From a virus (lineage: Duplodnaviria > Caudoviricetes), in IMG/VR virus record IMGVR_UViG_3300049182_000044, positions 192,001-256,000 of that record: 64,000 nt of DNA; one strand, given 5' to 3'. How positions within the stretch are numbered: position 1 is the first letter of the stretch; the number at the start of each line of letters is the position of its first letter. Below, piece by piece: positions 1-34,210 of the stretch. Made by a program: the position numbers and the translations under genes. The notes beneath the pieces are model-generated. The model did not search any database and was not told the DNA's origin. It saw nothing but the letters and a program-made list of their open reading frames with translations.

Positions 1-375
1 GTCATCGGAAATCAAATTGATCCCGTTGTCCAACACCCAGCGATAGAGCGGAATGAACAGACCTCGACCACGATACTCTGGACGCATGAACAGCGTCGGG
101 TGGTAGAACTTCGGCTTGATACCGGTGCGCATCGTCTTCGGATCGAGCAACATGAAACCAACGAACTTGTCGGTCTTGCTCTCCACTAGATAAACACGAT
201 ATTTGCTCTTCGTGTGCTGCACCAGGATGTGCAACTCAGAAGTGTACCCAACAGCTCGCCAAACGCCTGTGCCCTGCTTATAGGCTTTCTCACCCAAATC
301 GAGCAGTCCCAGAAAATCCTCGTCGAGATGGCTCATGTCTCGAATTTCTGCACTAAGGCTGATCTTTATTTTCAT
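1..375 (-). CDS. GNAT-like acetyltransferase (runs off the window edge), starts MKIKISLSAE
   Basis: Not in the ORF track; hand translation is open for 125 codons to base 1, contains acetyl-CoA motif MRPEYRGRGLF; SD GGAG upstream. Confidence 0.7.
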   Translation of the reverse strand, partial: MKIKISLSAEIRDMSHLDEDFLGLLDLGEKAYKQGTGVWRAVGYTSELHILVQHTKSKYRVYLVESKTDKFVGFMLLDPKTMRTGIKPKFYHPTLFMRPEYRGRGLFIPLYRWVLDNGINLISDD

Positions 376-386
376 CACAAACTCCA

Positions 387-420
387 ATAGGGGACGTCCC
401 ATTTCTGAGGCGTCCCCTAT
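387..420 (-). terminator. Hairpin between genes, abutting the SD of the next gene
   Basis: ATAGGGGACG (387-396) / CGTCCCCTAT (411-420) perfect 10-bp inverted repeat; no long U-tract. Confidence 0.5.
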
Positions 421-425
421 CTAAA

Positions 426-2105
426 TTATCGGCGATCCTGCTTCTTCAGCAGCTTCGGAGAGCGCAGTCCAAGCTTGTCGATAAAGAACTCATTGATCAC
501 TTCGGGGTCGATGTACGAACCAATCGAAGTGCTCGGCTGAGGCTTATCACCAGAGCGATGGTGCAGACGATTTGCAATGTCAATCACCTGCTCTTTGAAC
601 CACTTCTCAACTTCAGTCTGCTTCGGCTGGTGAGACTTCTTGAAGGGCGACTTGGCGATAAACTCTTGAGCCATCTTCGTACCTTCAACCGCACGAAGGC
701 TATGGACACGCATCGGAGTGCCTACGTTGCTCTTGAAGTATGTACGAGCTGCACCGTCACCGATTGGCTTACCTTCAATCGAGAATACCAGATCGTCCTC
801 TCCCTTACCGTCGATCAGCTTCTGAACGATCTTCTGCACCTTCTTAGCTACTGTGCTGTTGATCTTGTACTGAGCGGACTGCGGTGTCAGTTTCTTACCG
901 GTGTAATCGAACTGAATATAGCCAGACTTGACGGCCATGTGGCTCACGCGAATCGTAGACATGCCGTATGTCGGCTCGCCCTTGGTCGAATTGCCTTTAC
1001 CGCCGATACGGGACGAAGTAGCCCACAGAAGCTCGAACATTGCAGCTAGAGCTTGAGTACGGAACTTCTTCGAGTCCAGATCCTTCACCCACTTGGCGCG
1101 ATACGTGTCTTCCTTCTCGATGAAGTCTTTAACGTCGCTGAAACGAGCTTTCTTCTTGCCTTTCAGGAACTCAACCGTGCGATACGTCACACGATGGTCA
1201 GTACCCTTCGCAGCATAAGTGTTGTCAGAATCCGGATCGTACTTTGGGTTCATCGCCACTGTGCCATACGGCTGCTTCTCCAGCTCACGACCTTCAGCGG
1301 TGAAGTAAGTTTGTTCGGCGGTGACTTGAATACCTGGGAAGCCTTTGACGAGGTTGTGCGGGATGCCCTTCTTGTCCAGATGCTTCTTAACTTCTTCAAG
1401 ATCGACCATCTTCTTACCGGATGCCCGAACGAAGTTGGTGATTTCACGATCACGAATCGCCTTCAGCTTCTTGTTGAGCGGGGCTATCTGCTCCATCAGC
1501 TTTTTCTTCTTTGGATCAGCAGCCAGTTCAGCACGTTCATCGTTGTTCTGATAGAAGCAGGTATCACGACCCGTGAGCTGCTTCATCACCTTGCGGATTT
1601 CAGTGGTGAGCTTGCTCAGATCGCCAGTGACTTCCTTGCCCTTCTTGTCAACCACAGGCTTTGCGTGGTCTTCGTCGAGCGTGAACGCAGCATGCAGCTT
1701 CGTGCTTTCGAGCATACTCACAGCCTTGTGAATACGCTTCCACGAAGTCGGCTTCGCGTCACGAAGGTTTGCGCCAATGTCTTTAATCAGGTTGTAGTAC
1801 TCAAAGCTGATCTTGTTATCCTGATTGATCTTTGGCATCGCGTCTTTCATTGCATAGCCCAATTCATCAGCGTGGTCTTCGCTCAGATCACCTTTGACCA
1901 CGAACGAGTTCATAGCTTTGGTGAACTCTTTACCAAAGCCGAACTTCTTGGCGAATGCGGATGCTTCCGATGCCCAGCCTTTAACATCGGCTTTGAACGA
2001 ATCCGTCTTCTCACCGTTGAGGTCAAGCAGCATAACGAGCATGACCGAGGCGAATGCTTCTGCCTCAGGATGCTTTGCTGCTGCGAGTGCAATATTAAGT
2101 TTCAT
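426..2105 (-). CDS. Type IB topoisomerase-like protein with long N-terminal extension
   Basis: Catalytic pentad pattern in C-terminal half: SSRIG (R), YTGKK (K), HSLRA (R), RLHH (H), GSYIDP (Y). Confidence 0.75.
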   Translation of the reverse strand: MKLNIALAAAKHPEAEAFASVMLVMLLDLNGEKTDSFKADVKGWASEASAFAKKFGFGKEFTKAMNSFVVKGDLSEDHADELGYAMKDAMPKINQDNKISFEYYNLIKDIGANLRDAKPTSWKRIHKAVSMLESTKLHAAFTLDEDHAKPVVDKKGKEVTGDLSKLTTEIRKVMKQLTGRDTCFYQNNDERAELAADPKKKKLMEQIAPLNKKLKAIRDREITNFVRASGKKMVDLEEVKKHLDKKGIPHNLVKGFPGIQVTAEQTYFTAEGRELEKQPYGTVAMNPKYDPDSDNTYAAKGTDHRVTYRTVEFLKGKKKARFSDVKDFIEKEDTYRAKWVKDLDSKKFRTQALAAMFELLWATSSRIGGKGNSTKGEPTYGMSTIRVSHMAVKSGYIQFDYTGKKLTPQSAQYKINSTVAKKVQKIVQKLIDGKGEDDLVFSIEGKPIGDGAARTYFKSNVGTPMRVHSLRAVEGTKMAQEFIAKSPFKKSHQPKQTEVEKWFKEQVIDIANRLHHRSGDKPQPSTSIGSYIDPEVINEFFIDKLGLRSPKLLKKQDRR

Positions 2106-2120
2106 TTTCTTTCCTGCTTC

Positions 2121-2909
2121 TTATCCAGTGATGTTTTCAGAAGATACCTGAATCGCATTAGAAGGAACTTGTCCGATGTAGAAATAACCAGCGGAACGGG
2201 CGGAACCCTGCATAAGGTCATTCTGCGTGAAGAACACATCGCCGTTCATGACCAGCTTCGAGGTCTCGAATTGCACGAGCGTATGACTAAGCAGGTCTGT
2301 CTTCGAGATCATCTGGTGATTTGCTCGGAACAGATGCTTGTGCAGATCAGCACGAGCTTCTTCCACAGTGAGATGCAGACGGTATGGCTTGTCATGCTCA
2401 ACTGCCGGAAGCCCTTCATGCAACATCGACGGCACCCATTCGTTAGGGGCCTCGAAGTAGAAGAACTCCGGAAGGAACTGATAAACCACAAAGTTCTGGT
2501 ACAGCTCTTTCTCAGCTGGGATCGTGCGCACTGAACCTTCGTTGTGAGTGTTCGTGTTCTTGCCCATCGGAACTTGCGGAACGCCAGACTCGTAAAATCG
2601 ACGCTCACGATAATGCGGCTCCAAACGAGACGGGGTGAACAGTGGTCCTTCAGGGTTCAGGAATTTCATGTACTCCTTAGGAACCTGCGTCCACACAATG
2701 TAGTCACCCCAGCGCTCTGCAAAGAATGTCTGCATCTCCTGGGTATCAGGAATTTGAAGGAAACCAAGGTAGTCAGCGAACTTAGATGAAGCGTACGGTT
2801 CGGTCATGCCCTTGATTTTCTGTAAGTCGATGTAGGAGATCAGCTTCTGAGCAATCTCAGGAGATAGTCCGAAGAACCCTACAGCCCGATCTATAATCGC
2901 CTGTAACAT
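2121..2909 (-). CDS. Hypothetical protein, C-terminus weakly Tpt1/KptA-like (ART fold)
   Basis: 262 aa in-line ORF; C-terminal ...FFTQND...GYFYIGQVPSNAI pattern; fold call weak. Confidence 0.55.
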   Translation of the reverse strand: MLQAIIDRAVGFFGLSPEIAQKLISYIDLQKIKGMTEPYASSKFADYLGFLQIPDTQEMQTFFAERWGDYIVWTQVPKEYMKFLNPEGPLFTPSRLEPHYRERRFYESGVPQVPMGKNTNTHNEGSVRTIPAEKELYQNFVVYQFLPEFFYFEAPNEWVPSMLHEGLPAVEHDKPYRLHLTVEEARADLHKHLFRANHQMISKTDLLSHTLVQFETSKLVMNGDVFFTQNDLMQGSARSAGYFYIGQVPSNAIQVSSENITG

Positions 2910-2923
2910 GGTTCGCCTTTCGA

Positions 2924-3187
2924 TTAGAGGTGACTGAAATCTTTCTTGGATGCTTGTTCGGCAACGTTATCCGCGATTTCGCGCATCTTGGCTTTGAAGG
3001 CCTTGTCGTCACCTTTAACCAGCATTTCAGCAACTTCGTTGCCAGTGTCACCGGCCAGTTCTTTCATCAGCAAGGAGAAGAATGCTTGACGCGGGGTGTG
3101 GTGCTTCTTGCCTTTGGATTCGGAGACCTGAACATCGCCTTTGATAGCGATAGGGCTAGTGCTGGAAGCAGTAACGATGGTTTTCAT
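2924..3187 (-). CDS. Hypothetical protein
   Basis: 87 aa, SD AAGGAAG upstream. Confidence 0.6.
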   Translation of the reverse strand: MKTIVTASSTSPIAIKGDVQVSESKGKKHHTPRQAFFSLLMKELAGDTGNEVAEMLVKGDDKAFKAKMREIADNVAEQASKKDFSHL

Positions 3188-3337
3188 GGAAATTCTTCCT
3201 TAACTGGATAGATTAGAGACGTAAGATGACACGCAAGACCTAGTTTTGCGTTATGTGGATAAATTACGATTTTTGAGTTTCGGCGAGGATGTTACGTGCC
3301 GATTTGACGCGCATTTCTGCGGTGTAGAAAGGTAAGG

Positions 3338-3371
3338 AAAGGGCGATACCCACTGAGGAATACCGCCCTTT
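3338..3371 (-). terminator. Intrinsic terminator after ligase
   Basis: AAAGGGCG...CGCCCTTT stem followed by a T-rich run on the minus strand. Confidence 0.6.
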
Positions 3372-3374
3372 GGA

Positions 3375-5423
3375 TTACAGCTTTTCGATACGTTTAGCGA
3401 ACTCACCACGTTGCATGGTGGCCACGCCCATCTTCTTGGCTTTCTCAATCTTCGCAAAGCTCTTCTGCGGATCATTGAAGACCAAAAGTGATGTGTCCTT
3501 CTTGACGCCTTCACCCATGGTACCGCCCTGCTCTTCGACCTTGGCCGCCCACTCAGGATCACGGAAGCCGGTGAACACAATGGTCTGACCGGAAAACGCA
3601 TCACCCTTAGCTTTGGCCTTTTTCTTCTCTTCTGGCATCTTAGCTTCGATGCCCAGCTTGTCGTAGAATTCCTTGAAGGCGGGGAATCGTTCAGCAAACT
3701 GTTTCGACAAGACGTTGGAGAAGCCTTCGATACCCATAGCCATATCCGTCAACTGTTTCTGACTGTACTTGCCCGTCATAAGTTTCGGGAAAGCCTTGAC
3801 CAGCGGGACTAGGCGTTTCTCACCAAGACCTTGTCCGAACTTACCGCTAGCTTCCATGAGGGCCGGGAGCGTAGCGTTCTTCAAAGCCGCATCCATGTTG
3901 TCGCGCATCTTCGAGGCCGTCTTATCCTGAATCCCCTCGATTGCAAGGAACTTGGATTTCTTGGCCTTAGCGATCTTGAAGATGTTGTCCAGGCCAGCAT
4001 CATACAGCTTCTGAATCATGCCCTGCTTGACGCCATCAACACCGAGCTTCGTGAAGAAGTAGGTAATGCGTTTCACCTTGTTCAGGTCCGTCTTGACCGA
4101 TTGCTTGATCTCGACTTTGTTCTTACCGTAGGTGTATTCTACTTCGGGCATCTGCGGGGTCTTCGCTGCCTTCAGTACCTGAACGATGTGTGGGATAACG
4201 TCACCTGAACGGGTAATCAAGATCTTCGCACCGGGGCCAATTGGCATGACCGGCATTCCCTTAGTGCGATCCTTGTAGCGATAACCGTGTTCGATGAAGT
4301 ACGCATTGTGTCCGGTTGCGAACGTCACAGTCACACCCGCAAGACGCACAGGCTCAATCTCAACACGCGGCTTCAAAGTACCGTGGCGTGATTCTTCCCA
4401 CACCACTTGCTTGACCTTGACTTCTACGATGTCTTCAGCTGCCGTTTCCTTGTAGGCTACAGCGTGATCGGGATTCGAGCCTTCCGCGAGAGGAACCTTC
4501 TTATCCAGAACAACTACGAGGCCGTCAATTGCACGCTTCGTCTTCTTCTTGCGTACTTTCAGGATTTTGCTCAACTGCTCAGGAGTCAGATCCTTGTACA
4601 CCTTGTACGGCACTACGTTGAAGCCCAACTTCTTCAGCAGCTTCAACTGATCGCTGGGCTTGCCACGAGGTGTGAGGACTTCGTACACAACCACATGGAC
4701 GTCCTTGACTGCTGGGTGAACGTCTTTGCGATTGGCCATGCCGGCCACCATGTTGCGAGCGTTCTCGAAGCCTTCCTTCTTGCCCAGCTTCTCTGTTGAC
4801 CACTTTGCCTTGAAGGTAGCTTCAGGCATAATGATCTCGCCGCGAATGTCGATAGCGATCTTCAACGTCTGCGGAATGTCGAGATGCGGAACCAAGTGGG
4901 AAATATCCTGGCCCTTCATACCGTCACCGCGAGTAAATGCCTTGGCGACCTGTTTCGGCAAGTAGTTCAACTGAATCGAAACACCGTCTTCCTTGTTGGA
5001 GACAACGTAGGGTCCCTCGTGATCCATCAACCACTGAACTGCGGTAGCAGGCTTGATCTTATCGAGAGAGCCCATATAATGCTTGAGCTTGACCTTCGGT
5101 GCCTTGCCTTTGCCTGCCTGTACTGGGGCACCGATTTGCTTCAGCACCTTGGATTTCGGATTCAGGCGCTTCAGTTCCGCAGTGAGTTCGTCGAATGTTT
5201 CATCGTCGATCTTCATCCTCGTCTTAGGCATGTGGAACTCTGCGTCCAACAGCTTAAACAAAGCCGGATACTCTTTCGAGATATTGATGTTCAGGAACTT
5301 ACCTTTGTTGTAGTAAGAATCTGCAGCCTGAGTCATCAACTCTTCTAACTGTTTGATAGCCTTGCCTGACGAGGACAGGCTTATCATTATTTTAGCCACT
5401 GGCTTTTTCCTTCGTTCTAGCAC
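3375..5423 (-). CDS. ligA: NAD-dependent DNA ligase
   Basis: KxDG motif (SNKEDG), RGDG, RGE, ARN..AG, OB domain, HhH repeats, C-terminal BRCT (VFTGFR..GGT). Confidence 0.95.
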   Translation of the reverse strand: MLERRKKPVAKIMISLSSSGKAIKQLEELMTQAADSYYNKGKFLNINISKEYPALFKLLDAEFHMPKTRMKIDDETFDELTAELKRLNPKSKVLKQIGAPVQAGKGKAPKVKLKHYMGSLDKIKPATAVQWLMDHEGPYVVSNKEDGVSIQLNYLPKQVAKAFTRGDGMKGQDISHLVPHLDIPQTLKIAIDIRGEIIMPEATFKAKWSTEKLGKKEGFENARNMVAGMANRKDVHPAVKDVHVVVYEVLTPRGKPSDQLKLLKKLGFNVVPYKVYKDLTPEQLSKILKVRKKKTKRAIDGLVVVLDKKVPLAEGSNPDHAVAYKETAAEDIVEVKVKQVVWEESRHGTLKPRVEIEPVRLAGVTVTFATGHNAYFIEHGYRYKDRTKGMPVMPIGPGAKILITRSGDVIPHIVQVLKAAKTPQMPEVEYTYGKNKVEIKQSVKTDLNKVKRITYFFTKLGVDGVKQGMIQKLYDAGLDNIFKIAKAKKSKFLAIEGIQDKTASKMRDNMDAALKNATLPALMEASGKFGQGLGEKRLVPLVKAFPKLMTGKYSQKQLTDMAMGIEGFSNVLSKQFAERFPAFKEFYDKLGIEAKMPEEKKKAKAKGDAFSGQTIVFTGFRDPEWAAKVEEQGGTMGEGVKKDTSLLVFNDPQKSFAKIEKAKKMGVATMQRGEFAKRIEKL

Positions 5424-5461
5424 GATTATTCCTTTATAGGGACATTTGTACTTATTTACAG

Positions 5462-5947
5462 TTACGGGTCGAGTTCCTGAATGGCTTGTTCACCGAACGT
5501 CAGCACGATGGGCTTGCCGCCTAGTGCACCATTGAGGACCTCCAGAGCCGCATAAGCGTCTTCAGTACTAACATCTTTCTTAACCGTGATGTGCGGACGA
5601 TACTCTGGGAAGTCAACGGTGTAGCCCAATTCACGCCAGTCTGCATGAAGCTTCTGAAGACCTGGGCTATCCAGTAGGCACACAAGATACGGCTTGCCGT
5701 TGTGACCATCCCATTTAACGAACTCTGAGATACGGGCGACGTACACGTTCTTGCTCTTCGCCTCGCCAGTTGCTTTGTTCAAGTTCTTGGAGTAGAGGAC
5801 GGTGCAGTGCAGATCGTCGTAGTTCGGTTCGAGGAAGTCAACGAGCTTGAACAGCTCTACCAACTTGTCGTGCGACAGTCCAAGAGGATAGACTGCCGCG
5901 TAAGTGCCATTCTCGAATCCAGCAGATAGACTGATTTGAATTTTCAC
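5462..5947 (-). CDS. 2H phosphoesterase, Acb1/T4 57B-like (anti-CBASS candidate)
   Basis: Two HxT motifs: DLHCTVLYS and DFPEYRPHITV; 161 aa. Confidence 0.8.
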   Translation of the reverse strand: MKIQISLSAGFENGTYAAVYPLGLSHDKLVELFKLVDFLEPNYDDLHCTVLYSKNLNKATGEAKSKNVYVARISEFVKWDGHNGKPYLVCLLDSPGLQKLHADWRELGYTVDFPEYRPHITVKKDVSTEDAYAALEVLNGALGGKPIVLTFGEQAIQELDP

Positions 5948-6141
5948 GATTTTCCTTTCTTGACCACGGTCTTCGTTTTCTTCTTCGGATCGAAGCCGAG
6001 CATACGTCGAACATCCTTAGGTGTACGCTCCAGCTCTTCGTCATCAGGATCATCATCAGTGAACTTCGTCCAGTCCACTGGCTTGCCACCCACCTTACCA
6101 AAGTGAGCATTCGGCAAATGTTTCTTCAGGTTGCTTGGCAT
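5944..6141 (-). CDS. Small hypothetical protein
   Basis: 65 aa, overlaps next gene start; DDEELERTPKDVRRMLGFDP segment. Confidence 0.6.
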   Translation of the reverse strand: MPSNLKKHLPNAHFGKVGGKPVDWTKFTDDDPDDEELERTPKDVRRMLGFDPKKKTKTVVKKGKS

Positions 6142-6150
6142 GATAGACCT

Positions 6151-6618
6151 TTACGTGCGATGAATGCTGTGAATGACAGCGTTCAGCCATTTAGGCATCG
6201 ACTGATGCAGAGCATGAATTTTTGGGATGCTGTCGAGCACCGGCCGGAAGTAAGCCGTGTCCGTCTTTTCTTCCGTATAGGAGACGCCACCATTCGGGCC
6301 AATGACTTGTGCGTTCAGGAGCGGAGCCGGTGACAGTTCCTCGTACTTCATTTTCGCCACGTTACGGAAGCCAAACAGGAGTTCAACTGTCCAGTCTGCA
6401 TCGACTGTGTGACGATACACCCAGACCTTACCTTCTTTGGTTTCCTGAGGGTAGACCTGATCACCACGATTCGAGTCTTTAGCGATCTTGCGAAGAGTCT
6501 CACGCAACGTCATAATCATTTCTTGCTGCTCTTGCGTGGTACGCAGACGGGCACCGGCCTCAGCACCAGCAGAAGGTTTCGGTGGACGGGTAGCACTCAG
6601 GCTTACTTTGATCTTCAT
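6151..6618 (-). CDS. Hypothetical protein starting MKIKVSLSAT
   Basis: Start moved to 6618, which gives an ATGA overlap with the upstream stop. Confidence 0.7.
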   Translation of the reverse strand: MKIKVSLSATRPPKPSAGAEAGARLRTTQEQQEMIMTLRETLRKIAKDSNRGDQVYPQETKEGKVWVYRHTVDADWTVELLFGFRNVAKMKYEELSPAPLLNAQVIGPNGGVSYTEEKTDTAYFRPVLDSIPKIHALHQSMPKWLNAVIHSIHRT

Positions 6619-7577
6619 GGCATTCTCCACTCTGCAAATACAGCTGGACTGATGTAGCTTTGCAGAGCAATTGTTGGGGTGTTACCGAGCTTGGCAGCAA
6701 CCTTCTTGGCCACCGCGAGCACCATCTTGCGGTACTCTTTCTCGTTCGCCGGTTTCTTTTCGGACTTACGCACTTCGTCCAGTGCGGTGGCGGTACCCAA
6801 ATGAGTCCGGAAGTCCTTGGTCTTGAAATGCCCACCATCGAGTGTATGGGTATAATCAAGCAACTTCTTCTCGTTCAAATTCGGGAACAGCTTTCCGTCC
6901 GGGCCGGCTTCCTTGGCACGACGTTTCAGCATGTTGATCGCATCTTTGTCATCGACCTCGATATTGAGATCAACACCCTTCTTGCCAGTGAAGCGCAGGA
7001 AGACCTTGCCGTCCTCGATCACAACATGCTCGCCTTTCAGATTGGAAGCGCCGTATGCTTTCTTTTCAGCACCGGTGTCTGCGTCTGATCCTGGACGAAG
7101 GCCGGTCTTCATAATCAGCATCATGCAATCAGCACAGTCCTTCTTACGCGGAGTCTTAGAACGTCGTGCCTTCTCGTTCTGTTCGTGAATCGCATCGAAC
7201 TCTTCAGCGAGTGCTTGTACACGAAGGAACTTGGCTTCAGCCTGAGTCTTCATGAAGGCATCCGAATAGATCGGTTGCAGACGTCCTTTTGCATCACGCC
7301 CGGTAACGAGCAGGTCAGCATTCGGATCGGGATTGATACGCACATCACTCCAGCCGGGTGGAATGCCCAGCTTCTGGATGTGCTCAGGCAGCGGAGAACC
7401 ATCTGCCATCACGCGCTTCCCATCCACGACTTGCGTTTCATGTTCAGGACGAGCTGCGCGACGGCTCTTAGCGTACTTGGAGTTAGGATGTTCCGTAACG
7501 TACTTATCCTGCTCTTCTTTGGTCAACTCCTCAAACCAATTCTCGTTTTCTTTTGAAAGTGCGATTTGGATTTTCAT
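6615..7577 (-). CDS. Bacterial-type DNA topoisomerase IB
   Basis: IPPGW, GRDAKGRLQPIYS, TGLRPG, FTGKKG, KDFRT, KLGNT, QSYISP motifs. Confidence 0.92.
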   Translation of the reverse strand: MKIQIALSKENENWFEELTKEEQDKYVTEHPNSKYAKSRRAARPEHETQVVDGKRVMADGSPLPEHIQKLGIPPGWSDVRINPDPNADLLVTGRDAKGRLQPIYSDAFMKTQAEAKFLRVQALAEEFDAIHEQNEKARRSKTPRKKDCADCMMLIMKTGLRPGSDADTGAEKKAYGASNLKGEHVVIEDGKVFLRFTGKKGVDLNIEVDDKDAINMLKRRAKEAGPDGKLFPNLNEKKLLDYTHTLDGGHFKTKDFRTHLGTATALDEVRKSEKKPANEKEYRKMVLAVAKKVAAKLGNTPTIALQSYISPAVFAEWRMP

Positions 7578-8128
7578 AATTCGTATTCTTGTAAGCTCAA
7601 AACTCTAACGACCTCAATAGGGCTTTCAGAATAAGCGATAACTTCCTTCTGACCTAGGTAGGCATTAGCCATCTCGTCTAGTTTAGCAACCATACGATTA
7701 CCCGGCAATCGTTTTTTAACAAACGGAAGCACGCGCTTTACTACCCAGCTACCATTCACGACTTCATGCACACGGTCTTCGACCTTCATAACGTAGCAGC
7801 ATTCATAGCCATCAAGAGCACCTATCGAATCCGCTAAGTCTCTCCAGAATGCTTTTCCCGTACCGAACGTAAAACTCAAAACACGATTCGACTCAAGCGT
7901 CATCTTTTCAGGAAGAGGTGTATAGGAACCTATTACTCGGTACAGAGGCTTGTCAATCGGCACGTATGGAACGCTGTCAACTAGTGGCTTGAGGATTTTC
8001 TGCACTTCCACAGGATGTCTATAGCGCTCGTCTAGTCTGTATGACCCTTCAAAGAAGGAAGACAGCCAATCGCAAGCTCTATCTAAAGCGATATCTTGTG
8101 AGGAACTTAAACTGATTTTGATCTTCAT
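7574..8128 (-). CDS. Putative ADP-ribosyltransferase-fold protein (R-S-E type)
   Basis: LYR...SFT...QKEV motif order. Confidence 0.55.
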   Translation of the reverse strand: MKIKISLSSSQDIALDRACDWLSSFFEGSYRLDERYRHPVEVQKILKPLVDSVPYVPIDKPLYRVIGSYTPLPEKMTLESNRVLSFTFGTGKAFWRDLADSIGALDGYECCYVMKVEDRVHEVVNGSWVVKRVLPFVKKRLPGNRMVAKLDEMANAYLGQKEVIAYSESPIEVVRVLSLQEYEL

Positions 8129-9265
8129 TTAGAAACCCTGTTTTGCTATCAATTCTTCTTTGCCGAAACTTGTGTAGTAGTCGGTAGCCGACATCCACAC
8201 TTCCTTTTCCTGCGCTTGCGTTGTCTTGATCTTGAACGTGTCCACCAGCTTCGAGAAGTCCAAAACGAAATCAGCTGGTCGCAGTTCTTTCTTGAATACC
8301 GCAATCGCCTCACCGGACTCCAAGTCCTTCACCGCGTTCAACGCAATGTGTGGATCAAGAGAATACGGAAGTTGTTTGCCTTTGCGTCCATCGAAGCCAT
8401 TCACGCGACCTTTGAGGCGACCTGACCGATCAAACTTCTTCAAGTCCTCTTCGGTCATAATGACAGCGCGATAGATACTCTTAACCCTGGGTGGTGAGCG
8501 GAACTTGTCTGCCAGTTCGTGCTTGGTAATCCTCGTCATCGAGGCGGTAACGTCACCGAACATATCGAGATACGTCTGCACATCGGATTCAAAGTTCTCG
8601 TCGAAGTCGGGAACCAAGGTTGCTGCCACCGCGTCCATCGGCACCTTGTACTTTGCAAACAGCTTGTGCAAGTAATCGTCCTGAGCTTTCGTTAAGGTCT
8701 TACCTTTGCTCAACTGTTCGCCAATGTTCTTCACGAACTTGGTATCGTAGTCATTGAACTTTGTATGGTGCATCTTCCACAGGAAGCGTGTTCGTGGGTA
8801 CAACGTCTTCGGGTCTTTCGAGACGTATGCCTGCTCCTTCGTGTATGGAACGTGTTCTTTGACAGGCATCGCATACCGATACTTCGCTGCGTTCTCAAAC
8901 TCAGCTGGCTCGATGTGGATGGTCTTCAACGTGCGTCCTGTACCTGCAAGGCGTTGCTCGATTTCCGGCAGCTTGTGATACGGGCTAGTGACGAACACCA
9001 ACACGTTACCCAAACGCAGACGACGCAGTTTCTCCGGTTGCCAATCCCAGCCTACAAAAGACTGTTTCGACAAGTAAGCAATGTCTCCGCCGTTATCGCT
9101 ATCTCGTTCCTGATGCGGGACAAGGATGTACGAATCAGATGGGTAATCAATGCCCCAAGCGACGGGTACCTTGAATACGTGAATCAGACGCTCCTTCTCA
9201 GGTACCCAATAGAAGAAGTCCGGCTTATTCTGTGGCGCAGAAGCTAGCGCAACTTTGATTTTCAT
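8129..9265 (-). CDS. Multi-domain protein with C-terminal ART-like domain
   Basis: Start 9265 (MKIKVALASA, ATGA overlap); C-terminal IYR...YSLDPHIA...EKEV. Confidence 0.55.
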   Translation of the reverse strand: MKIKVALASAPQNKPDFFYWVPEKERLIHVFKVPVAWGIDYPSDSYILVPHQERDSDNGGDIAYLSKQSFVGWDWQPEKLRRLRLGNVLVFVTSPYHKLPEIEQRLAGTGRTLKTIHIEPAEFENAAKYRYAMPVKEHVPYTKEQAYVSKDPKTLYPRTRFLWKMHHTKFNDYDTKFVKNIGEQLSKGKTLTKAQDDYLHKLFAKYKVPMDAVAATLVPDFDENFESDVQTYLDMFGDVTASMTRITKHELADKFRSPPRVKSIYRAVIMTEEDLKKFDRSGRLKGRVNGFDGRKGKQLPYSLDPHIALNAVKDLESGEAIAVFKKELRPADFVLDFSKLVDTFKIKTTQAQEKEVWMSATDYYTSFGKEELIAKQGF

Positions 9266-9759
9266 GGTGTTCTCCAAAGAGGCCCTGGGATGAAATGTCC
9301 CGATTGAGCTATTACACCGTTGCTCAAATGACCTTCTAGTTCTTTGCCGATGTCTTGTACTTTGTAGGGTGGGAAGAACAGGTGAACCAACACCTCAACG
9401 TCACCACGTACTGCACGAATAGCCTTTACACGATTGAGCCCTTCGTAATCTCGGACCTTTGCATCGTCCCAGATCGGCTTCATTTCGTTGCTCTTCAGTT
9501 CAATGTCGATCCAAGGGCTCGCAATGGCGTCACCCTTTTCAATACTCTCACGATAGAACTCTTCAGTGAGCGTCTCCTTGTTATCGACAGGGAGAACCAG
9601 TTCGATGAAAGTATTGGCCTTCATCAGCACGGTCAGACCAACCGCAGCTTCCTTATTGCGTTGGGTCGTACCGTAGCCAGCTTCCTGATCGTAGCGAATG
9701 CCATACACGAAGGCTTCTTTCGACAACGAGGTAGAGAATAATGGAATTTTGATCTTCAT
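9262..9759 (-). CDS. ParB/Srx-like protein, paralogue 1
   Basis: GDAIASPW...YEGLNRVKAI; clear similarity to the neighbour. Confidence 0.6.
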   Translation of the reverse strand: MKIKIPLFSTSLSKEAFVYGIRYDQEAGYGTTQRNKEAAVGLTVLMKANTFIELVLPVDNKETLTEEFYRESIEKGDAIASPWIDIELKSNEMKPIWDDAKVRDYEGLNRVKAIRAVRGDVEVLVHLFFPPYKVQDIGKELEGHLSNGVIAQSGHFIPGPLWRTP

Positions 9760-9761
9760 GA

Positions 9762-10310
9762 TTATTGCCAGAGTGGACCACGAACGAAACGACCATGTTG
9801 CCCTTTGATGCCTTTACGCAGCCCTTCGATCATTCCTTCTGTGAGGTGTTTGTTATTGTCCAAATTACTGAAAGTGATGTGAACAAGCACGGGAACACCG
9901 CCGTGAATATCGGATATGGCTTTCATGCGATTGCGTCCTTCGTGCCCCGAAATGTAGGCGCCGTCCACAACCTTGTCACGGCCGTCTTCACCCAGTTCAA
10001 TGCGCAGCCATGGACTTGCGATTGCACCACCGTTTTGAATATGCTCTTTGATGTGCGTCAAATTAGTTGCCTCTGCGCTACCGATCAACAGAGGGTAGCA
10101 CAAATCAAGGAACGTACTCGGAGCCATCAACACCGAGAAACCCTTATGCCCCACTTCCTGATTGTGCGGTATGGCACCGAGACCTTTTACTTGATCGTAC
10201 TGGATACCGTGCAGCTCGTGGCGCAGAGCACGGTTCAGAACTTCAGCCATAGTTAGGAAACGGCCTTGACCGGGCTTCGTATCAGAGGAGAGGGCGATTT
10301 TGAGTTTCAT
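9762..10310 (-). CDS. ParB/Srx-like protein, paralogue 2
   Basis: GGAIASPW...GHEGRNRMKAI, matching the ParB-like dGhhR motif. Confidence 0.65.
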   Translation of the reverse strand: MKLKIALSSDTKPGQGRFLTMAEVLNRALRHELHGIQYDQVKGLGAIPHNQEVGHKGFSVLMAPSTFLDLCYPLLIGSAEATNLTHIKEHIQNGGAIASPWLRIELGEDGRDKVVDGAYISGHEGRNRMKAISDIHGGVPVLVHITFSNLDNNKHLTEGMIEGLRKGIKGQHGRFVRGPLWQ

Positions 10311-10356
10311 GATGTTCTAATGGGAATGGGTGACCCCGAAGAGCCACCCAAGTTTC

Positions 10357-10731
10357 TTAATTGCCGGACTGCGCATCCTTGGCGTCTGCCTTCATCATAA
10401 CGGCGTCTGCTTTGTGCTTGTCTTTGAATGCAGTCAGTGTACTGAGTGCATCATGCCACACGTTCGAACCTGCAGACCCCAACAGACCTACGATCAGGAT
10501 CGACTGGAGGAACGGCAAGTCCTTCAGGAAGATGATTGTGTCAGGAGGATTCAGTACAGCAGCGAGCGCTGAAGTGGCGAACGTGATGCCTTGCAGAACA
10601 GCGACACGTACTTTTTCGTTTTGCAGCTTGTTCAGATCAACAACTGCTTTGATGGACGCGGTAATGCGTTCAGCAACAGCTGCGATCAGACCGAGATACA
10701 CAACGATTTCAGTGATAGACGATTCAAACAT
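10357..10731 (-). CDS. Small membrane protein, holin-like
   Basis: 124 aa with 2-3 hydrophobic segments, GSAGSNVWHD, charged C-terminus. Confidence 0.5.
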   Translation of the reverse strand: MFESSITEIVVYLGLIAAVAERITASIKAVVDLNKLQNEKVRVAVLQGITFATSALAAVLNPPDTIIFLKDLPFLQSILIVGLLGSAGSNVWHDALSTLTAFKDKHKADAVMMKADAKDAQSGN

Positions 10732-10771
10732 AGTTACCTCTCAAGTTATGCTCAACTAGAGCAATTCGTTA

Positions 10772-11017
10772 CTACTTAGGACGGTATCCTTGCTCGTCTT
10801 CATCATCGTACCACGCGACGATCTCTCCATTTGCGGCGTTGCGAATGATGTTCAGAGGAGGATCTTTAACGTCGTTCTTCACATGGATGTGCAAACGTGT
10901 CTTCACATACTCAATAAAATCAAGAAGGTCTTCACCATGAGTATTGGGTGGATGACGATCCATGAAATCGTCAATGTCATCTTCACGTTTGCCGGAGAGT
11001 GCGATTCTGAGCTTCAT
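10772..11017 (-). CDS. Small acidic protein starting MKLRIALSG
   Basis: 81 aa in-line ORF. Confidence 0.65.
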   Translation of the reverse strand: MKLRIALSGKREDDIDDFMDRHPPNTHGEDLLDFIEYVKTRLHIHVKNDVKDPPLNIIRNAANGEIVAWYDDEDEQGYRPK

Positions 11018-11032
11018 AAAAATCTCTGCTGA

Positions 11033-12079
11033 TTAAATGTCCAACTTGACCTTACCTACGATCACGTTAGGATGGAATAGCGCCATCGAGTTGCCAGTCG
11101 GCCCTTCGACAACGTACATGCTGTCATAGCTAAGATCGACCAGATAGTCTCTCAGCCTTTCTACAAACTCAACTCGCGGCACTCCGGTATGCGGCCAAGT
11201 AAGAGCCGGATCATTGATCGTCGGCAGCTTCAAGTCCGGATTGCTTTCACGAATGACGTTGTAATCCTCTTTGCACTGAGGCTTGCGCAAATCGAAGATG
11301 TGGCGAGGGTTGACCGTAAGTTGATGGATAGGAATACCCATCTTCTTCGCCATCATCTTGGCTTTCGCAGTTTCAAGATCGTCAGTGACGACCAAGAAGT
11401 TGCTGCGACGCAATTCAGCAGCCGGGTCATAGCTGACGCAGTACACTGGAGTGCTGCTCATACTGCGATATGACTTCGGGATCGGCAAATCCAACCAGCT
11501 GAGGTCCTCGTCGATCTCCAGCTCATCAGGCGTAATCAACTTGCCGCCATGCAGGACATGTCCGGCTGGCACGGGGTCTTCATCCTCAATTGTCGGACGT
11601 ACCTGCACCTTGACCTTTGAGGGCTTGGTAGTCTTCTTCAGTTCCTTCTCTTTCTTCACCGCCAGCTTCTTCGATTCAACGTCAGGCTGTACCGGCTTAG
11701 AAGGCTTCGCAGGCTTTTTCGGTTTGGTCAGATCGACCTTGATCTTCGTCGGCTTAGTAGCTTTTACCGGATCACCTAGATCGGACTGCTTGATCTTGCC
11801 CTTGTATTCCTTCGACCGATCCATGATCTTATCTGAACGAGGAATGTCGACCTTGAAGATCACATTAGGCATCTTCAAAACCAAGTAACGATCTTGGGTA
11901 CGTGTAGCTTCTTTCACGCCATACAAGTCACCCTTGCTGAGCTTGACCGATCGTCCTCGTTCATCGACGAGCTTAACGCCTTTGTCACCCGTGTACTTGT
12001 GCCAGGTGTAATCCTTTACTTTGAAGTGCTTGCCCGTTGCAGCAAGCGCTACCCCTTCTACGAGTGTTCGAGTCAACAT
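11033..12079 (-). CDS. Hypothetical protein; Lys/Pro-rich linker, C-terminal degenerate ART-PolyVal-like domain
   Basis: 348 aa; VVTDDLETA...HIFDLR...YDSM...ALFHP pattern; domain call weak. Confidence 0.55.
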   Translation of the reverse strand: MLTRTLVEGVALAATGKHFKVKDYTWHKYTGDKGVKLVDERGRSVKLSKGDLYGVKEATRTQDRYLVLKMPNVIFKVDIPRSDKIMDRSKEYKGKIKQSDLGDPVKATKPTKIKVDLTKPKKPAKPSKPVQPDVESKKLAVKKEKELKKTTKPSKVKVQVRPTIEDEDPVPAGHVLHGGKLITPDELEIDEDLSWLDLPIPKSYRSMSSTPVYCVSYDPAAELRRSNFLVVTDDLETAKAKMMAKKMGIPIHQLTVNPRHIFDLRKPQCKEDYNVIRESNPDLKLPTINDPALTWPHTGVPRVEFVERLRDYLVDLSYDSMYVVEGPTGNSMALFHPNVIVGKVKLDI

Positions 12080-12735: not shown

Positions 12736-14607
12736 TTAAACGTGTACCGTCTTCGGCTTCTTGTTGAAATCGCCACGAACATGGGCGGCTTTCATTGCAC
12801 GGACGATGTTGAGGTTGATCTTCTCGTTAGCTGCCTTCTGATTGCGAACGTATTTGGGCTTGCCAGTCTTCGACGATGCCTTCACTTCACCGGCTTCACC
12901 GAACTTACGGCTCAACAGAGGAACCTTACCTCCACGCGCATGAACAGCCGAACGTGTCTTGCCAGAAGGAGCATCCGAAGCCAACGCAACGAGGGCGCTT
13001 GCTGTAGCTTCTTCGTCGCCCTCTTCCGCAGCGCGCGGGTTGATCGCCTCCAGCTTATCCAGGTAGTCCTTGATCTTCTTGCGTGTTTCAATGTCATCAT
13101 CCTGCTGGCGCAGCAAATCGTCGATGTTCAACCCACCTGCAGCTGCCATAACACGCAGCGGGACTGGGACACCCTTCTCGGTCATGCTGTTGAGCATTTC
13201 GAGATACGCCGAATCGCCCTCAGGCTTCAACTGTTTTGCCCAGTGAATCGTCGGGATCAGCAACTTCGAGCCGTCATTCAGCCTGAACATTGCGTCTTCC
13301 GGAGTCATCTCACTCATCAAGTTTTCGCGAATGGAGACCTTGCCCTTCGATGTAAGCGTGTAGCCATTCAGCATCGAAATAAGCGGGAACAGCTTATCGT
13401 AGAAGAGCTTGCGCGTCAGCATTTCACGATAGGCACGCATTTGTTCGATGAAGACCGTCAGCGATGTGTCTGCTGTGTTGTAGTTGGCATCGCCACTGAG
13501 GAAGCCTTCCGAAATTCCCAACGCACGAAGCTTGTGCGCGAGGACAGAATCCGCGAAATCGCCGTGCTTCCAAAACTCACCGCCTTGGCGAAGTTCCTCG
13601 ACCGACACGCCCAGACGAGTTGCAATGATCGCTCCCAGCGGGTCGCTATCGGCGTTCATGAACAGGTCTGTAATGAATTCCAAGTCCTGTACAGTCGGTG
13701 TCCACTCCTCGCCGTCGCCCAGAGAGATATGCATGATGCCCCGTTGACGGCGAGCCGATTCGATCAGCGTGCCACGGAACAAGTTCTTTTCGATCAAGTA
13801 GATAGGGAGAATACGGCGGAAGTACGACGTACCGGAATCCGTTGTCGAGAACGTCTTACGCGGGATGTACATCGTGGACAGCGGATCGAGTTCAAGCGTA
13901 CCTGAAGTAATCTTCTCGATCACGGTCTTGCCGATCTGTTCCCGAATACGCTTCATGCGAGGCGTATCGCGTTTGAGCAGTTCCTGCACTTGCTCATTGA
14001 ACTTGACAGTAATGAAAGGGTCTTGCGAATAGAAAGGAAGGTTCTCGAAGGTCAAGTTCTCGATAGCATGAGGCATGATATCCGTGAACAGCTTCTTCTC
14101 TTTGTTGTACAGCAAAGACGAGGTATGCGCACCGAGTACCAGATAATCAACACTGATTTCCGGCAACAGGGTACGCAATGACAGACGTTCGAGCGTCTCT
14201 GCGAAAGTGTTTGCAATCTTTGGATCGCTAATACCACCCAGGGTGAATTCACTGAACGGCAAGGATGAGATAAGATCAACGGCCGATCCAGCTACGGGAT
14301 CGTGGTAGTACATGTCTCGATACAGGCGATGAAAATACGCTTGTTCAATCTGAGGCGTGATGCCCGTCAGCATCGGATCGAGATCGATGCTGATCGGGTT
14401 GTTCGACATGCTGGTGTTCTGCATACCGTTGACAGGGCCGGAGCTCAAGCTCGTGAACGGCGCTGCACCGCCTTGCTCTTCACTCTTGGTCTTTCTCACT
14501 GCGCGTGAGTTTGTGCCTAGCGACGTGTTACGTGCTGGCTTGTCTGAAGTGCCTACAGCGGGCCTCAGACCAAAGGCCACATTAGCACTCTTCTTAACCG
14601 TAATCAT
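12736..14607 (-). CDS. Portal protein
   Basis: 623 aa, near terminase; YRDMYYHDPVAGSAVDLISSLPFS helix typical of the portal N-terminal region. Confidence 0.75.
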   Translation of the reverse strand: MITVKKSANVAFGLRPAVGTSDKPARNTSLGTNSRAVRKTKSEEQGGAAPFTSLSSGPVNGMQNTSMSNNPISIDLDPMLTGITPQIEQAYFHRLYRDMYYHDPVAGSAVDLISSLPFSEFTLGGISDPKIANTFAETLERLSLRTLLPEISVDYLVLGAHTSSLLYNKEKKLFTDIMPHAIENLTFENLPFYSQDPFITVKFNEQVQELLKRDTPRMKRIREQIGKTVIEKITSGTLELDPLSTMYIPRKTFSTTDSGTSYFRRILPIYLIEKNLFRGTLIESARRQRGIMHISLGDGEEWTPTVQDLEFITDLFMNADSDPLGAIIATRLGVSVEELRQGGEFWKHGDFADSVLAHKLRALGISEGFLSGDANYNTADTSLTVFIEQMRAYREMLTRKLFYDKLFPLISMLNGYTLTSKGKVSIRENLMSEMTPEDAMFRLNDGSKLLIPTIHWAKQLKPEGDSAYLEMLNSMTEKGVPVPLRVMAAAGGLNIDDLLRQQDDDIETRKKIKDYLDKLEAINPRAAEEGDEEATASALVALASDAPSGKTRSAVHARGGKVPLLSRKFGEAGEVKASSKTGKPKYVRNQKAANEKINLNIVRAMKAAHVRGDFNKKPKTVHV

Positions 14608-15213: not shown

Positions 15214-15669
15214 TTAATAGTGAAGTTTAGCTTCGAGTTGTGCTTTCGCCTTCGTGTATTTCACAATCTCGTCTTGATAGTGTTTCTTCTTCGCAGCGCG
15301 TTGATCCTTGTTCAAGGACTTGTTGCCGGCCAGGCTTCTCAGGAGCTTGCGATTGCCGCTAAGGATTCGCTTAACGGTACGCAGCTTCTTCTTCAGGATC
15401 GACAGTTTGTCTGCATCGAGCTTCTTTGCAAGAGCTACTTTCTCCGCTACCGGCTTTGCCTTAGATTTCGGGTCGGCCGATTTCCCGAGCTTGAACGCCT
15501 TTCCGAACTTAGAATTCGGGTGCCGTTTCAAGTAAGCGGCCTTCTGCGTCTTGGTTAGCAGCTCCCACCAATGGACGCTCTTTGCAGAGCTCTTCTTGGT
15601 GGGATTCAGCAGCTTCTTTTTCTTAGCAGCCACTTCCTTGCTAGCCTTTTTCGATTTATCGCTGGCCAT
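15214..15669 (-). CDS. Lys-rich basic protein
   Basis: 151 aa; WWELLTKTQKAAYLKRHPNSKF motif. Confidence 0.7.
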   Translation of the reverse strand: MASDKSKKASKEVAAKKKKLLNPTKKSSAKSVHWWELLTKTQKAAYLKRHPNSKFGKAFKLGKSADPKSKAKPVAEKVALAKKLDADKLSILKKKLRTVKRILSGNRKLLRSLAGNKSLNKDQRAAKKKHYQDEIVKYTKAKAQLEAKLHY

Positions 15670-15915: not shown

Positions 15916-15969
15916 GATTTCCTCGAAAGTGAGTACTATGTTGATTCCTCAAAATTACGATTTCTTGCG

Positions 15970-18194: not shown

Positions 18195-19289
18195 CTAGAA
18201 TCCTCCTGCCATCGGCTTGGCTGAATCAGTACGTGTACGCTTTGTCGCTCGAGCGCCGTCAGTAGTCATACCGATTCGCTTGTCTTTGGCGTTGTGTGTA
18301 CGCACCGCTCCCTGCTTAGCCTGATGTTCGGAGTGTTTGACCAACACGCCTTCCAGCTCGCGCAATTGCGAACTAATGGCATCCGATTTGTTTGTCTTTT
18401 GCATAGTCTCTAATGAGGCTTTGGAGAGTTCGTCGATGAAGCGTTGCATGTAGCGTTTCTTCAAGGAGCGAGGGAGTGACAAGCGTTTGAGGTAGAAGAA
18501 CACAACATCGAGTCGTGCCAGTTCTTTTACTACCTCTAGTACACCGCGGTCAATGTCTACGTCAATCTTCAAACCATCTGCGAGGACGGTTTTGACGTAA
18601 TTAGAAGCTGCGTCGTAAGACAGCAGCGAAGGTGCTGAATTGGTCAACAAGAGCTGACTCAAATCCTTTGTGCGGCGTTCTGTCTTACGCGCCACACTCT
18701 TCAATAGTGATTCGGGAATACTCACCACGTTTTGCAGGGCGAGGCCCTCAGCCTCACGCGGCATCATACTCGCGTAATTGATTTCCAACTGAGGCATAAC
18801 ACCAGGCGTTCGTTTCGGCACCGGCTTAGGAGGCTTGATCGGCTCTACGGTCAGCTTGGCCTTCTTCTTTTTCTTCTTAGGTTTGTCAGCCTTCTTCGGT
18901 ACACCAACCTTTGCAATGTCTTCTTCAGTGGTTTTTATTTTGACCTTGTCCTTCGTACCCTTTTTCTTTTTCTTCTGTGCATCAGGCAAAGGTGCGGGCG
19001 GAGCCGCAGGTGCGGCCCCAATGATTACTGGCTCGACGGTCTTGGCTTTCGTCTTAGGCTTCTCAGCTTGTTCTGCCAATTTCTTCTTCGACGGTTTGTA
19101 GATGTCTGATAGCACTTGCTCAGGCTCGCGCTTCTTTTTCTTTTTCTTCTTTTTGGGAGTATCAACGATCCCGAAGATGCCCTCGGGAATTTCAGTATTG
19201 ACTCCGAACTTTTCAGGCTTCTTATGTTTGCTAATCACCTTAGTTCCCACTTTCTTCGTCTTCAATGAAATGACGTACTCGACGGCCAT
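18195..19289 (-). CDS. Lys/Pro-rich protein, candidate terminase small subunit
   Basis: Directly upstream of terL; function inferred from position only. Confidence 0.4.
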   Translation of the reverse strand: MAVEYVISLKTKKVGTKVISKHKKPEKFGVNTEIPEGIFGIVDTPKKKKKKKKREPEQVLSDIYKPSKKKLAEQAEKPKTKAKTVEPVIIGAAPAAPPAPLPDAQKKKKKGTKDKVKIKTTEEDIAKVGVPKKADKPKKKKKKAKLTVEPIKPPKPVPKRTPGVMPQLEINYASMMPREAEGLALQNVVSIPESLLKSVARKTERRTKDLSQLLLTNSAPSLLSYDAASNYVKTVLADGLKIDVDIDRGVLEVVKELARLDVVFFYLKRLSLPRSLKKRYMQRFIDELSKASLETMQKTNKSDAISSQLRELEGVLVKHSEHQAKQGAVRTHNAKDKRIGMTTDGARATKRTRTDSAKPMAGGF

Positions 19290-19731: not shown

Positions 19732-19810
19732 CTTATTCTCTCGTTCTGACAATGATGCTACTAAATTGTCATTTTCAACGAGAAAATGAAAAGTGAGCCC
19801 CAAAGGGCAA

Positions 19811-19840
19811 AAGGCCAATACCCGTGAAGATATTGGCCTT
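19811..19840 (-). terminator. Intrinsic terminator-like hairpin
   Basis: AAGGCCAATA / TATTGGCCTT perfect 10-bp stem, followed by a second small hairpin and T-runs. Confidence 0.6.
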
Positions 19841-19854
19841 GTCTATTTACAGTA

Positions 19855-34097: not shown

Positions 34098-34210
34098 GTT
34101 TGACCTTGATGTGGAAACCTGCCTATTCGTAATGACGTTCACTACTGCCACCCACCCTTTACAGTTTGAGTGTCATGACCGACATTACGAATTTCGAGTC
34201 CCAAACACGC

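Follow-up and report, generated by a model that had tools for sequence, protein, structure and literature searches.

Nine open reading frames (ORFs) between positions 426 and 10310 of a 64-kb stretch of phage DNA begin with the same eight-residue peptide, M-K-(I/L)-x-(I/V)-(S/A)-L-(S/A), in which hydrophobic and polar residues alternate. The stretch, referred to here as the window, comprises bases 192001-256000 of the 281,566-bp linear virus record IMGVR_UViG_3300049182_000044, which is judged complete. The proteins that carry this N-terminus, called the tag below, include enzymes as dissimilar as two TopIB topoisomerases, an NAD-dependent DNA ligase (LigA) and an Acb1-like 2H phosphoesterase. 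We tentatively propose that the tag is a capsid address comparable to the capsid targeting sequence (CTS) of phage T4, with which separate enzymes would be delivered together with the DNA, as an unfused counterpart of the 'polyvalent proteins'. This interpretation is a reasonable and testable hypothesis, partly supported by evidence that is circumstantial.

The tag is found beyond the interval as well. Twelve tagged ORFs are present in the local run, which extends from genome position 191384 to window position 11017, and 15-17 are present genome-wide. Those elsewhere in the genome include ORFs at 41149, 46611 and 46986, possibly one at 65016, and one directly 3' of the major capsid protein (MCP) gene. 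Strict matches to the tag numbered 11, as compared to none in 20 shuffles and to 0.005 expected per 378 ORF starts; the genes that an earlier note on this DNA had called 'tagged' do therefore share an N-terminal peptide. The codons used for the tag differ between genes, with serine drawn from both the AGY and the TCN families, and no conservation is seen in the DNA upstream. It is therefore the peptide that is under selection. On the same grounds we rejected a nucleotide-level element, in the form of an RNA or DNA motif at the gene starts. In both structure models that were made, the tag precedes the folded part and has no defined structure: in the ParB-like protein, residues 1-23 have a predicted local distance difference test (pLDDT) value below 50, and the ART-like (ADP-ribosyltransferase-like) protein starts as coil.

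As a separate observation, a 110-aa ORF on the minus strand (window 59575-59904, start at genome 251904) begins with MQINVSVSVVV, which may be a degenerate tag or simply a hydrophobic N-terminus.

Conservation of the tag in related phages

The only sequencing run matching the record is of soil metagenome DNA, which may be its source, and a megablast search of window positions 1-12000 against phage records returned no DNA-level match. The portal protein has 52.7% identity to its counterpart in Pseudomonas phage PaBG and 44-46% identity to the portal proteins of phage NCTB and of Dickeya, Erwinia and Yersinia jumbo phages. Because of these identities the phage is assigned to the PaBG/Lu11 'Lupandier' group (described in PMC7412058), where the sequence comparison places it as a PaBG-like jumbo phage in a separate lineage. 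The related contigs compared include L004, L005, L007, L008, L010, L026 and L027; L007, L010 and L027 are metagenomic contigs.

The tag is kept on orthologues that are 50-79% identical to the proteins of the window. The ParB-like homologues P0002-P0004 (53-71% identity) are all tagged. In L007, L010 and L027 the tag is present on orthologues of Acb1, the ligase, the 320-aa TopIB and the 81-aa ORF, as well as on other proteins including SprT-like ones; among these are the L010 orthologues of the 320-aa TopIB (76% identity) and of the 81-aa ORF (79%) and the L007 orthologue of Acb1. A tagged protein of 429 aa in the present genome matches the N-termini of two SprT-like proteins of relatives over its own N-terminal ~80 residues, and tag-type N-termini are widespread in the ART-like family. 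Other contigs carry a different peptide in the same role of shared start: L026 has MKLEAxxRL on three consecutive ORFs, and in L004, which is more distant, three ORFs, the ligase gene among them, begin with MKVLN. Within a lineage, all tagged genes have the same dialect. Such lineage dialects would be expected of a tag that co-evolves with its reader.

Four cultured relatives, Dickeya phage AD1, Erwinia phages pEa_SNUABM_2 and Y3 and Yersinia phage fHe-Yen9-02, encode proteins starting with M-E/K-I-x-V/I-S-L-S. Searches for the tag in PaBG, NCTB, Lu11 and phiRSL1 gave background only, and N-terminal k-mer enrichment in PaBG and phiRSL1 revealed no tag. This is important to note because the PaBG virion proteome, coming from a phage without the tag, cannot test it.

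The dialects also bear on the explanation that there is no common mechanism, and that the interval is an ordinary intracellular island of DNA-metabolism and counter-defence genes whose shared start is a by-product of translation-initiation optimisation or of cassette history. This explanation would agree with the favourable effect of MK-rich, A-rich second codons on translation, with the mixing of DNA-metabolism and structural genes seen across the phage group, and with the co-orientation of nearly the whole window. However, residues 5-8 are conserved although their codons vary (to the extent of using both serine families) and the upstream DNA does not hold its sequence, 15-17 tagged N-termini stand against 0.005 expected, and the tag persists on orthologues of 50-79% identity with one dialect per lineage. 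An origin of this kind is nearly excluded.

The residues that follow the tag are biased as well. Of 34 tagged N-termini, 20 have a Glu at residues 10-15, as compared to 79 of 307 untagged ones (p = 2e-4; the tagged set includes orthologues), and (S/A/G)-x-E is found just after the tag in 11 of 34 tagged as compared to 26 of 307 untagged proteins, a pattern that is partly favoured by the tag's own Ser/Ala. The Glu enrichment would suit a Glu-specific head protease. It is also what would be seen if the tag were recognized by a single enzyme of phage or host (a protease, a chaperone, or an enzyme modifying N-termini, such as the tagged GNAT-like protein) and served as a signal for processing, modification, folding or turnover, which would set the amount or activity of the proteins and give them no destination. 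A GNAT-like gene and a protease gene are in fact found at the end of the tagged run. However, the GNAT assignment is weak, and relatives whose dialects differ (L004) encode the protease family too. None of the candidate reader enzymes was found to occur together with the tag, and the enrichment itself (p about 2e-4) is subject to the limits on the counts given above. We regard a signal of this type as rather improbable.

A second shared N-terminus was observed in L007, where six consecutive Laminin_G_3 proteins (L007:2316-7734) begin with MSLVLASPYKK; this segment may serve to anchor fibre or 'hair' proteins.

Enzymes encoded in the block

Four assignments within the interval are solid on the basis of domain matches and motifs, namely the two TopIB enzymes, LigA and Acb1, and all four had been named in the earlier note. 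Both topoisomerases score above the Pfam cut-off for PF01028 (53.7 bits for the 559-aa and 89.7 bits for the 320-aa protein, cut-off 23.7), and both contain the tyrosine motif SYI(D/S)P, as GSYIDP and LQSYISP, respectively. The 559-aa enzyme matches phrog_23460 over its full length (4.9e-84) and is a homologue of PaBG gp084 (30-34% identity). In LigA the adenylation (85.8 bits), OB (54.1 bits, 1.5e-14) and BRCT (27.1 bits, 4.9e-6) domains were recognized by Pfam, with KEDG at residue 144, whereas HHH_5 was below its cut-off. The Acb1-like protein scores 70.8 bits as compared to a PF23474 cut-off of 27 and has two H-x-T motifs, HCT47 and HIT119.

Two further observations concern these proteins. 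The 320-aa TopIB contains, at residues 14-35 (window 7470-7540), a module W-x-E-L-T-x-x-Q-x-x-Y-x-x-x-HPNSK-(Y/F), which is also present in an unrelated small basic ORF between TerL and portal (15214-15669; residues 33-55, window 15505-15570) and in L007 and L005. A second, untagged Acb1-like 2H gene (Pfam Acb1, 9e-13) is located on the minus strand at genome 184798-185355, between the second tail-sheath gene and a scaffold-like gene.

Assignments of the remaining ORFs are less firm. Pfam (E up to 10) and PHROG searches returned nothing for the reading frames at 2121-2909, 2924-3187, 6151-6630, 7574-8128, 8129-9277, 9262-9759 and 9762-10310. The earlier note had counted two ParB-like proteins, and the two ORFs in question are indeed paralogues with a conserved GHEGRNR motif, which was compared with the conserved Arg of the GxxR pocket of the ParB/sulfiredoxin superfamily. 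The model of the 182-aa paralogue (pLDDT 64) has best fold matches that are almost exclusively ParB, Noc, KorB, Osa and sulfiredoxin (Srx), with weak scores: VIA-align Z was 5.4 to Osa and 4.3-5.0 to sulfiredoxin, and Foldseek ranked ParB/Srx at the top with E of at least 0.16. The same protein has an ESM Atlas feature score of 0.94 to ParB_N clusters. Confidence in a ParB/Srx-like identity for the pair is moderate.

Of the two ART-like proteins claimed at the same time, the 184-aa one is retained with moderate confidence. An exhaustive homologue search recovered 36 metagenome relatives of it, whereas a word-based search found only the protein itself. Across the family (36 sequences) LYR is conserved, S85 and E162 are invariant and T87 and Q160 near-invariant (S-x-T and Q-x-E); Arg, Ser-x-Thr and Gln-x-Glu thus follow each other in the R-S-E order of T4 Alt/Mod-type ADP-ribosyltransferases. 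The model has a pLDDT of 95.5, and ART chains recur weakly among its matches (VIA-align Z <= 3.9, Foldseek E > 0.05, template-modelling score (TM) 0.4-0.6), the folds being of the T4 Mod/Alt type, pertussis-like, C2/iota-like and SidE mART. Comparison of the model with the ESM Atlas placed no named ART family among the top rows. For the neighbouring 378-aa ORF there are weak leads from the Atlas, and its C-terminal part is possibly ART-like. A 'tandem ART pair' was considered and dropped, as BLASTP between the two proteins detected no similarity beyond the tag.

The GNAT-like protein that had also been listed for the interval is encoded outside it, by an ORF that ends at window position 375, and its assignment is weak. 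A PHROG acetyltransferase match has an E-value of 5.8e-4, Pfam Acetyltransf_7 gave E = 0.13 (13 bits as compared to a cut-off of 27), and the sequence contains YRGRGLF, for comparison with motif A (R/Q-x-x-G-x-G/A).

Gene order around the block

Transcription proceeds from high to low window coordinates (Table 1). TerL is followed by three small ORFs and then by portal, and the block occupies part of the head module, with the portal gene on one side and the head-protease gene on the other. Past the block the order is HNH endonuclease, head-maturation protease (phrog_18299 at 1.5e-87), second tail-sheath, nuclease, second Acb1, scaffold-like gene, virion structural protein and MCP. The terminase and portal genes are thus upstream of the block as the earlier note had stated. 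Its further statement, that these enzymes lie there rather than with the replication genes, does not hold, since genes for an MmcB-like nuclease, DnaB, a topoisomerase-like protein and topo II are directly upstream of TerL on the same strand. That the block forms a co-oriented run is correct in that all genes of 426-10310 are on the minus strand, and uninformative in that the minus strand holds nearly all genes of the 64-kb window.

Table 1. Features of the block and its surroundings in window coordinates, listed in the direction of transcription.
Feature	Position	Strand	Evidence or remark
Topo II subunits	31896-34151, 30268-31896	-	upstream of TerL
Topoisomerase-like gene	25959-26690	-	upstream of TerL
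DnaB	22789-24213	-	upstream of TerL
MmcB-like nuclease	19240-19818	-	upstream of TerL
Terminase large subunit (TerL)	15970-18183	-	phrog_17415 4.1e-238
Class-L motif	15952-15961	-	before 77-aa ORF heading portal unit; same place in L010
Portal protein	12736-14607	-	phrog_16240 1.4e-217
Untagged ORF, 210 aa	12089-12721	-	directly 3' of portal; conserved in L010, L007
Untagged KMPT-N domain protein, 348 aa	11033-12079	-	PF20294 2.2e-8; beside portal also in L010, L007
Tagged small ORF, 81 aa (MKLRIALSG)	10772-11017	-	first tagged gene after portal
Untagged ORF, 124 aa	10357-10731	-	conserved in L007, L008, L010
Tagged ParB/Srx-like paralogue 2, 182 aa (MKLKIALSS)	9762-10310	-	conserved GHEGRNR
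Tagged ParB/Srx-like paralogue 1, 165 aa (MKIKIPLFS)	9262-9759	-	37% identity to 9762-10310
Tagged ORF, 378 aa (MKIKVALAS)	8129-9265	-	C-terminal part possibly ART-like; Atlas leads, TM 0.33-0.36
Tagged ART-like protein, 184 aa (MKIKISLSS)	7574-8128	-	family of 37
Tagged bacterial-type TopIB, 320 aa (MKIQIALSK)	6615-7577	-	PF01028 2.3e-25; Top1B_N_bact PF21338 5e-9
Tagged ORF, 155 aa (MKIKVSLSA)	6151-6618	-	no family match
Untagged basic ORF, 65 aa	5944-6141	-	
Tagged Acb1-like 2H phosphoesterase (MKIQISLSA)	5462-5947	-	GTG start; PF23474 1.3e-19
Class-M promoter-like motif ACTGTAAATA	5453-5462	-	38 nt before ligase ORF; like motif before L007 ligase unit
Tagged NAD-dependent DNA ligase LigA, 674 aa (MAKIMISLSS)	3375-5399	-	GTG start with ribosome-binding site; Pfam adenylation 4.5e-24
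Terminator-like hairpin, strong, 14-bp stem	3338-3371	-	directly 3' of ligase stop codon
Class-L promoter-like motif, full 12-mer AATCGTAATTTA	3261-3270	-	before ORF 2924-3187, head of 559-aa TopIB unit
Untagged small ORF, 87 aa	2924-3187	-	first gene after class-L motif
Untagged ORF, 262 aa	2121-2909	-	no Pfam/PHROG match to E = 10
Tagged TopIB, 559 aa (MKLNIALAA)	426-2105	-	long N-terminal extension; PF01028 2.5e-14
Tagged GNAT-like ORF, 198 aa (MKIKISLSA)	1-375, on past window start to genome 191779	-	

The association of these enzymes with the head genes was also seen in relatives. In L004, genes for the protease, Acb1, a ParB-like protein, ligase and TopIB come after portal, and in L005 protease, Acb1 and ligase are kept after portal; the linkage between portal and this set of genes is therefore older than the MK(I/L) dialect of the tag. 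A row of eight tag-like ORFs in L027 extends as far as the scaffold-like gene.

Several neighbouring genes were noted in passing. The HNH-type endonuclease (phrog_681, phrog_559; genome 190316-191365, minus strand), located between the tagged run and the protease gene, is probably a homing-endonuclease insertion. An untagged staphylococcal-nuclease homologue (PF00565 at 4.5e-11) is encoded on the minus strand at genome 186980-187342, in the head/tail region. A 673-aa protein (genome 182597-184618, minus strand) is named 'ATPase' through homology to PaBG gp82; it is rich in Asp/Glu over long stretches of low complexity, is encoded just before the virion-structural and MCP genes, and resembles a scaffolding protein. 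In the distant relative L004 the large terminase subunit (L004:6093-9680) is 1195 aa long, with a central intein-like insert, as compared to 737 aa for the TerL of the window.

Upstream motifs and transcription units

Two classes of motif were found upstream of genes. The class-L motif, (A/T)ATCGTAATTT(A/T), occurs 40-120 nt before tail-sheath, baseplate-wedge, virion-structural and fibre-like genes, and the class-M motif, ACTGTAAATA, occurs before the DNA polymerase, MmcB-like nuclease and ligase genes. Upstream motif sites in the window are those of Table 1 and one at 19844-19853, and many more are present in the genome. Motifs of both classes are kept in place in L010 and L007. A scan for sigma-70 promoters yielded fewer sites than were found in shuffled sequence. 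With timing classes deduced from the genes downstream of each motif, class L and class M are candidate late and middle promoters, respectively, of this phage group.

On this assignment most of the block is probably read together with the structural genes. The ligase has a motif of the DNA-polymerase type and its own terminator, which suggests that it is expressed with the replication genes. The block is therefore not one late operon, and would comprise at least three transcription units.

A capsid address as the favoured reading

In the reading that we favour, the interval is an accessory-enzyme cluster in which each enzyme would be given the same short N-terminal address or docking peptide, and the assembling head would be the most likely destination. 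After delivery, Acb1 would destroy the signals of the cyclic oligonucleotide-based antiphage signalling system (CBASS), the ART-like protein or proteins would modify host targets, and the ligase, TopIB and ParB-like proteins would work on the genome as it enters. Late timing, packaging, cleavage and ejection, every substrate, and the proposed roles in nick resealing and genome relaxation are points that we infer.

A common destination and mostly late timing are partly supported by several lines of evidence. These are the presence of one tag on unrelated enzymes, the position in the head module, the class-L motif, the precedent of the T4 CTS, the resemblance to the polyvalent repertoire, and a helicase-like protein in the PaBG virion. 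The last is a 221-kDa helicase-like protein detected in band 1 of the PaBG virion proteins (PMC7412058). Its homologue in the present genome is a 1924-aa ORF on the plus strand (genome 50058-55832), 32% identical over the full length, and the tagged ORFs at 46611 and 46986 are located 2-3 kb upstream of it.

A number of results weigh against a capsid address. Unlike the T4 CTS, the tag is followed by no fixed cleavage motif among the tagged proteins, and in some of them a folded domain starts right after it; by inspection, the two peptides have no sequence similarity beyond M-K. Searches with the head-maturation protease against PDB sequences and profiles and against Pfam gave no protease class. 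The argument from position is limited by PaBG, in which genes for thymidylate kinase, a SprT-like protein and TopIB lie between the sheath and capsid genes, and by Erwinia phage Y3, in which portal is followed by ~60 genes without annotated structural function; because of the latter, adjacency to portal is weak evidence in this phage group. In Dickeya phage AD1 and Erwinia phage Y3 the tagged genes are outside the head module, beside clamp-loader, SbcC-type exonuclease, sigma-factor, SSB and RecA genes. The tagged proteins include gp202-204, gp227 and gp236 in AD1 and Y3_193, 195, 205, 206 and 208 in Y3. The expression of the ligase suggested by its motif points in the same direction. Finally, the list of PaBG virion proteins from 14 gel bands does not include the TopIB gp084, although PaBG is untagged and the method insensitive (PMC7412058).

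Several of these results would be accounted for by the main rival explanation, namely that the tag brings the enzymes to some place on phage DNA inside the cell, for instance a replication/repair factory, the sliding clamp or another hub, and that the enzymes are a genome tool-belt that is not injected. Most of the identifiable tagged domains act on DNA (two TopIB, LigA, two ParB/Srx-like), and to these the 429-aa SprT-linked protein can be added; however, it is not evident what Acb1 and the ART-like protein would do at a replisome. The replication and repair genes flanked by tagged genes in AD1 and Y3 agree with a hub, as do the positions of the tagged ORFs at 41149, 46611, 46986 and 65016, which are near the giant helicase, DNA polymerase and beta-clamp genes, and the promoter-like motif that the ligase gene has in common with the DNA polymerase gene. 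The phage DNA polymerase itself is untagged, however, and the main cluster is located between the portal and head-protease genes. In cells, ligases, repair nucleases and SPRTN are well-known carriers of short terminal clamp-binding peptides, but by inspection the tag ends in Ser/Ala and not in the hydrophobic/aromatic end of the beta-clamp consensus QL(S/D)LF or QLxLxL, and PaBG has a clamp without having the tag. We consider recruitment to such a hub unlikely. Should the tag nevertheless address one, it would still represent an undescribed recruitment system common to many unrelated enzymes.

Extended from this genome to its relatives, the capsid-address reading would be that a clade of jumbo phages uses an N-terminal address peptide, co-evolving within each lineage, to load a changeable set of full-size enzymes (Acb1, ligase, two TopIB, ART-like and ParB-like proteins) into the capsid as separate cargo delivered with the genome. 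In this complete form the proposal is possible but somewhat doubtful. If it is true, counter-defence and genome-care enzymes could be at work for jumbo phages ahead of all phage gene expression, and an Acb1 that is active from the first second of infection would change the understanding of how CBASS is evaded. No phage particle would have been known before to deliver a topoisomerase, a ligase and Acb1, and the means would be modular 'unfused' polyvalent effectors. The tag would also provide a simple sequence rule for predicting the virion cargo of uncultivated phages and, like the T4 CTS, a portable means of loading foreign proteins into large phage heads. Because the tag is present in cultured relatives, the question can be tested at the bench now.

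Comparison with known systems

Short peptides that direct diverse proteins into a shell are known from encapsulins, in which a conserved terminal cargo-loading peptide directs diverse enzymes into an HK97-fold shell. Those peptides are usually located at the C-terminus and attach directly to the shell protein, in contrast to the tag, which is N-terminal. Enzymes that act on DNA and are carried in the virion for entry have precedents among large DNA viruses, in vaccinia TopIB, the virion RNA polymerase and inner-body proteins of phiKZ, and the 221-kDa helicase-like protein of PaBG; none of these uses a known short common tag.

The closest precedent for the proposed address is that of T4 and the T-even phages, whose internal proteins are a diverse, defence-related set sharing only the ~10-residue N-terminal CTS, which places them in the scaffolding core (PMC3012670). 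The CTS of IPI, IPII and IPIII (MKTYQEFIAE) resembles the tag in being a peptide of about this length at the N-terminus of unrelated proteins, several of them concerned with counter-defence. In both cases a head-maturation protease is encoded, genes for small prohead components lie beside the portal and protease genes, and Glu is often found after the shared peptide. The two differ in that the cargo here would consist of full-size enzymes, such as a ligase of 674 aa and a TopIB of 559 aa, and not of small internal proteins. Packaging, cleavage and ejection have been shown for T4, whereas for the present phage they are predictions.

In the nature of its cargo the block is most comparable to the polyvalent proteins, which combine ART, DdrB-like ParB, 2H and metallopeptidase domains, are predicted to enter the particle and to be delivered along with the DNA, and are in some cases fused to portal or MuF (PMC5512222). 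The repertoire described by Iyer et al. 2017, which includes P1 DarB/DdrB and the MuF/portal fusions, is shared in its ART, ParB/Srx-type, 2H, metallopeptidase-associated KMPT-N and GNAT components, the ART and ParB assignments here being moderate and the GNAT one weak, and the neighbourhood of portal and head genes and the proposed delivery of effectors with DNA are common to both. According to the search made, TopIB and NAD ligase are not listed among the typical polyvalent domains (PMC5512222). Polyvalent proteins join two to fifteen domains in one polypeptide, whereas in the present phage the corresponding proteins are encoded by separate ORFs, each with its own start and its own tag.

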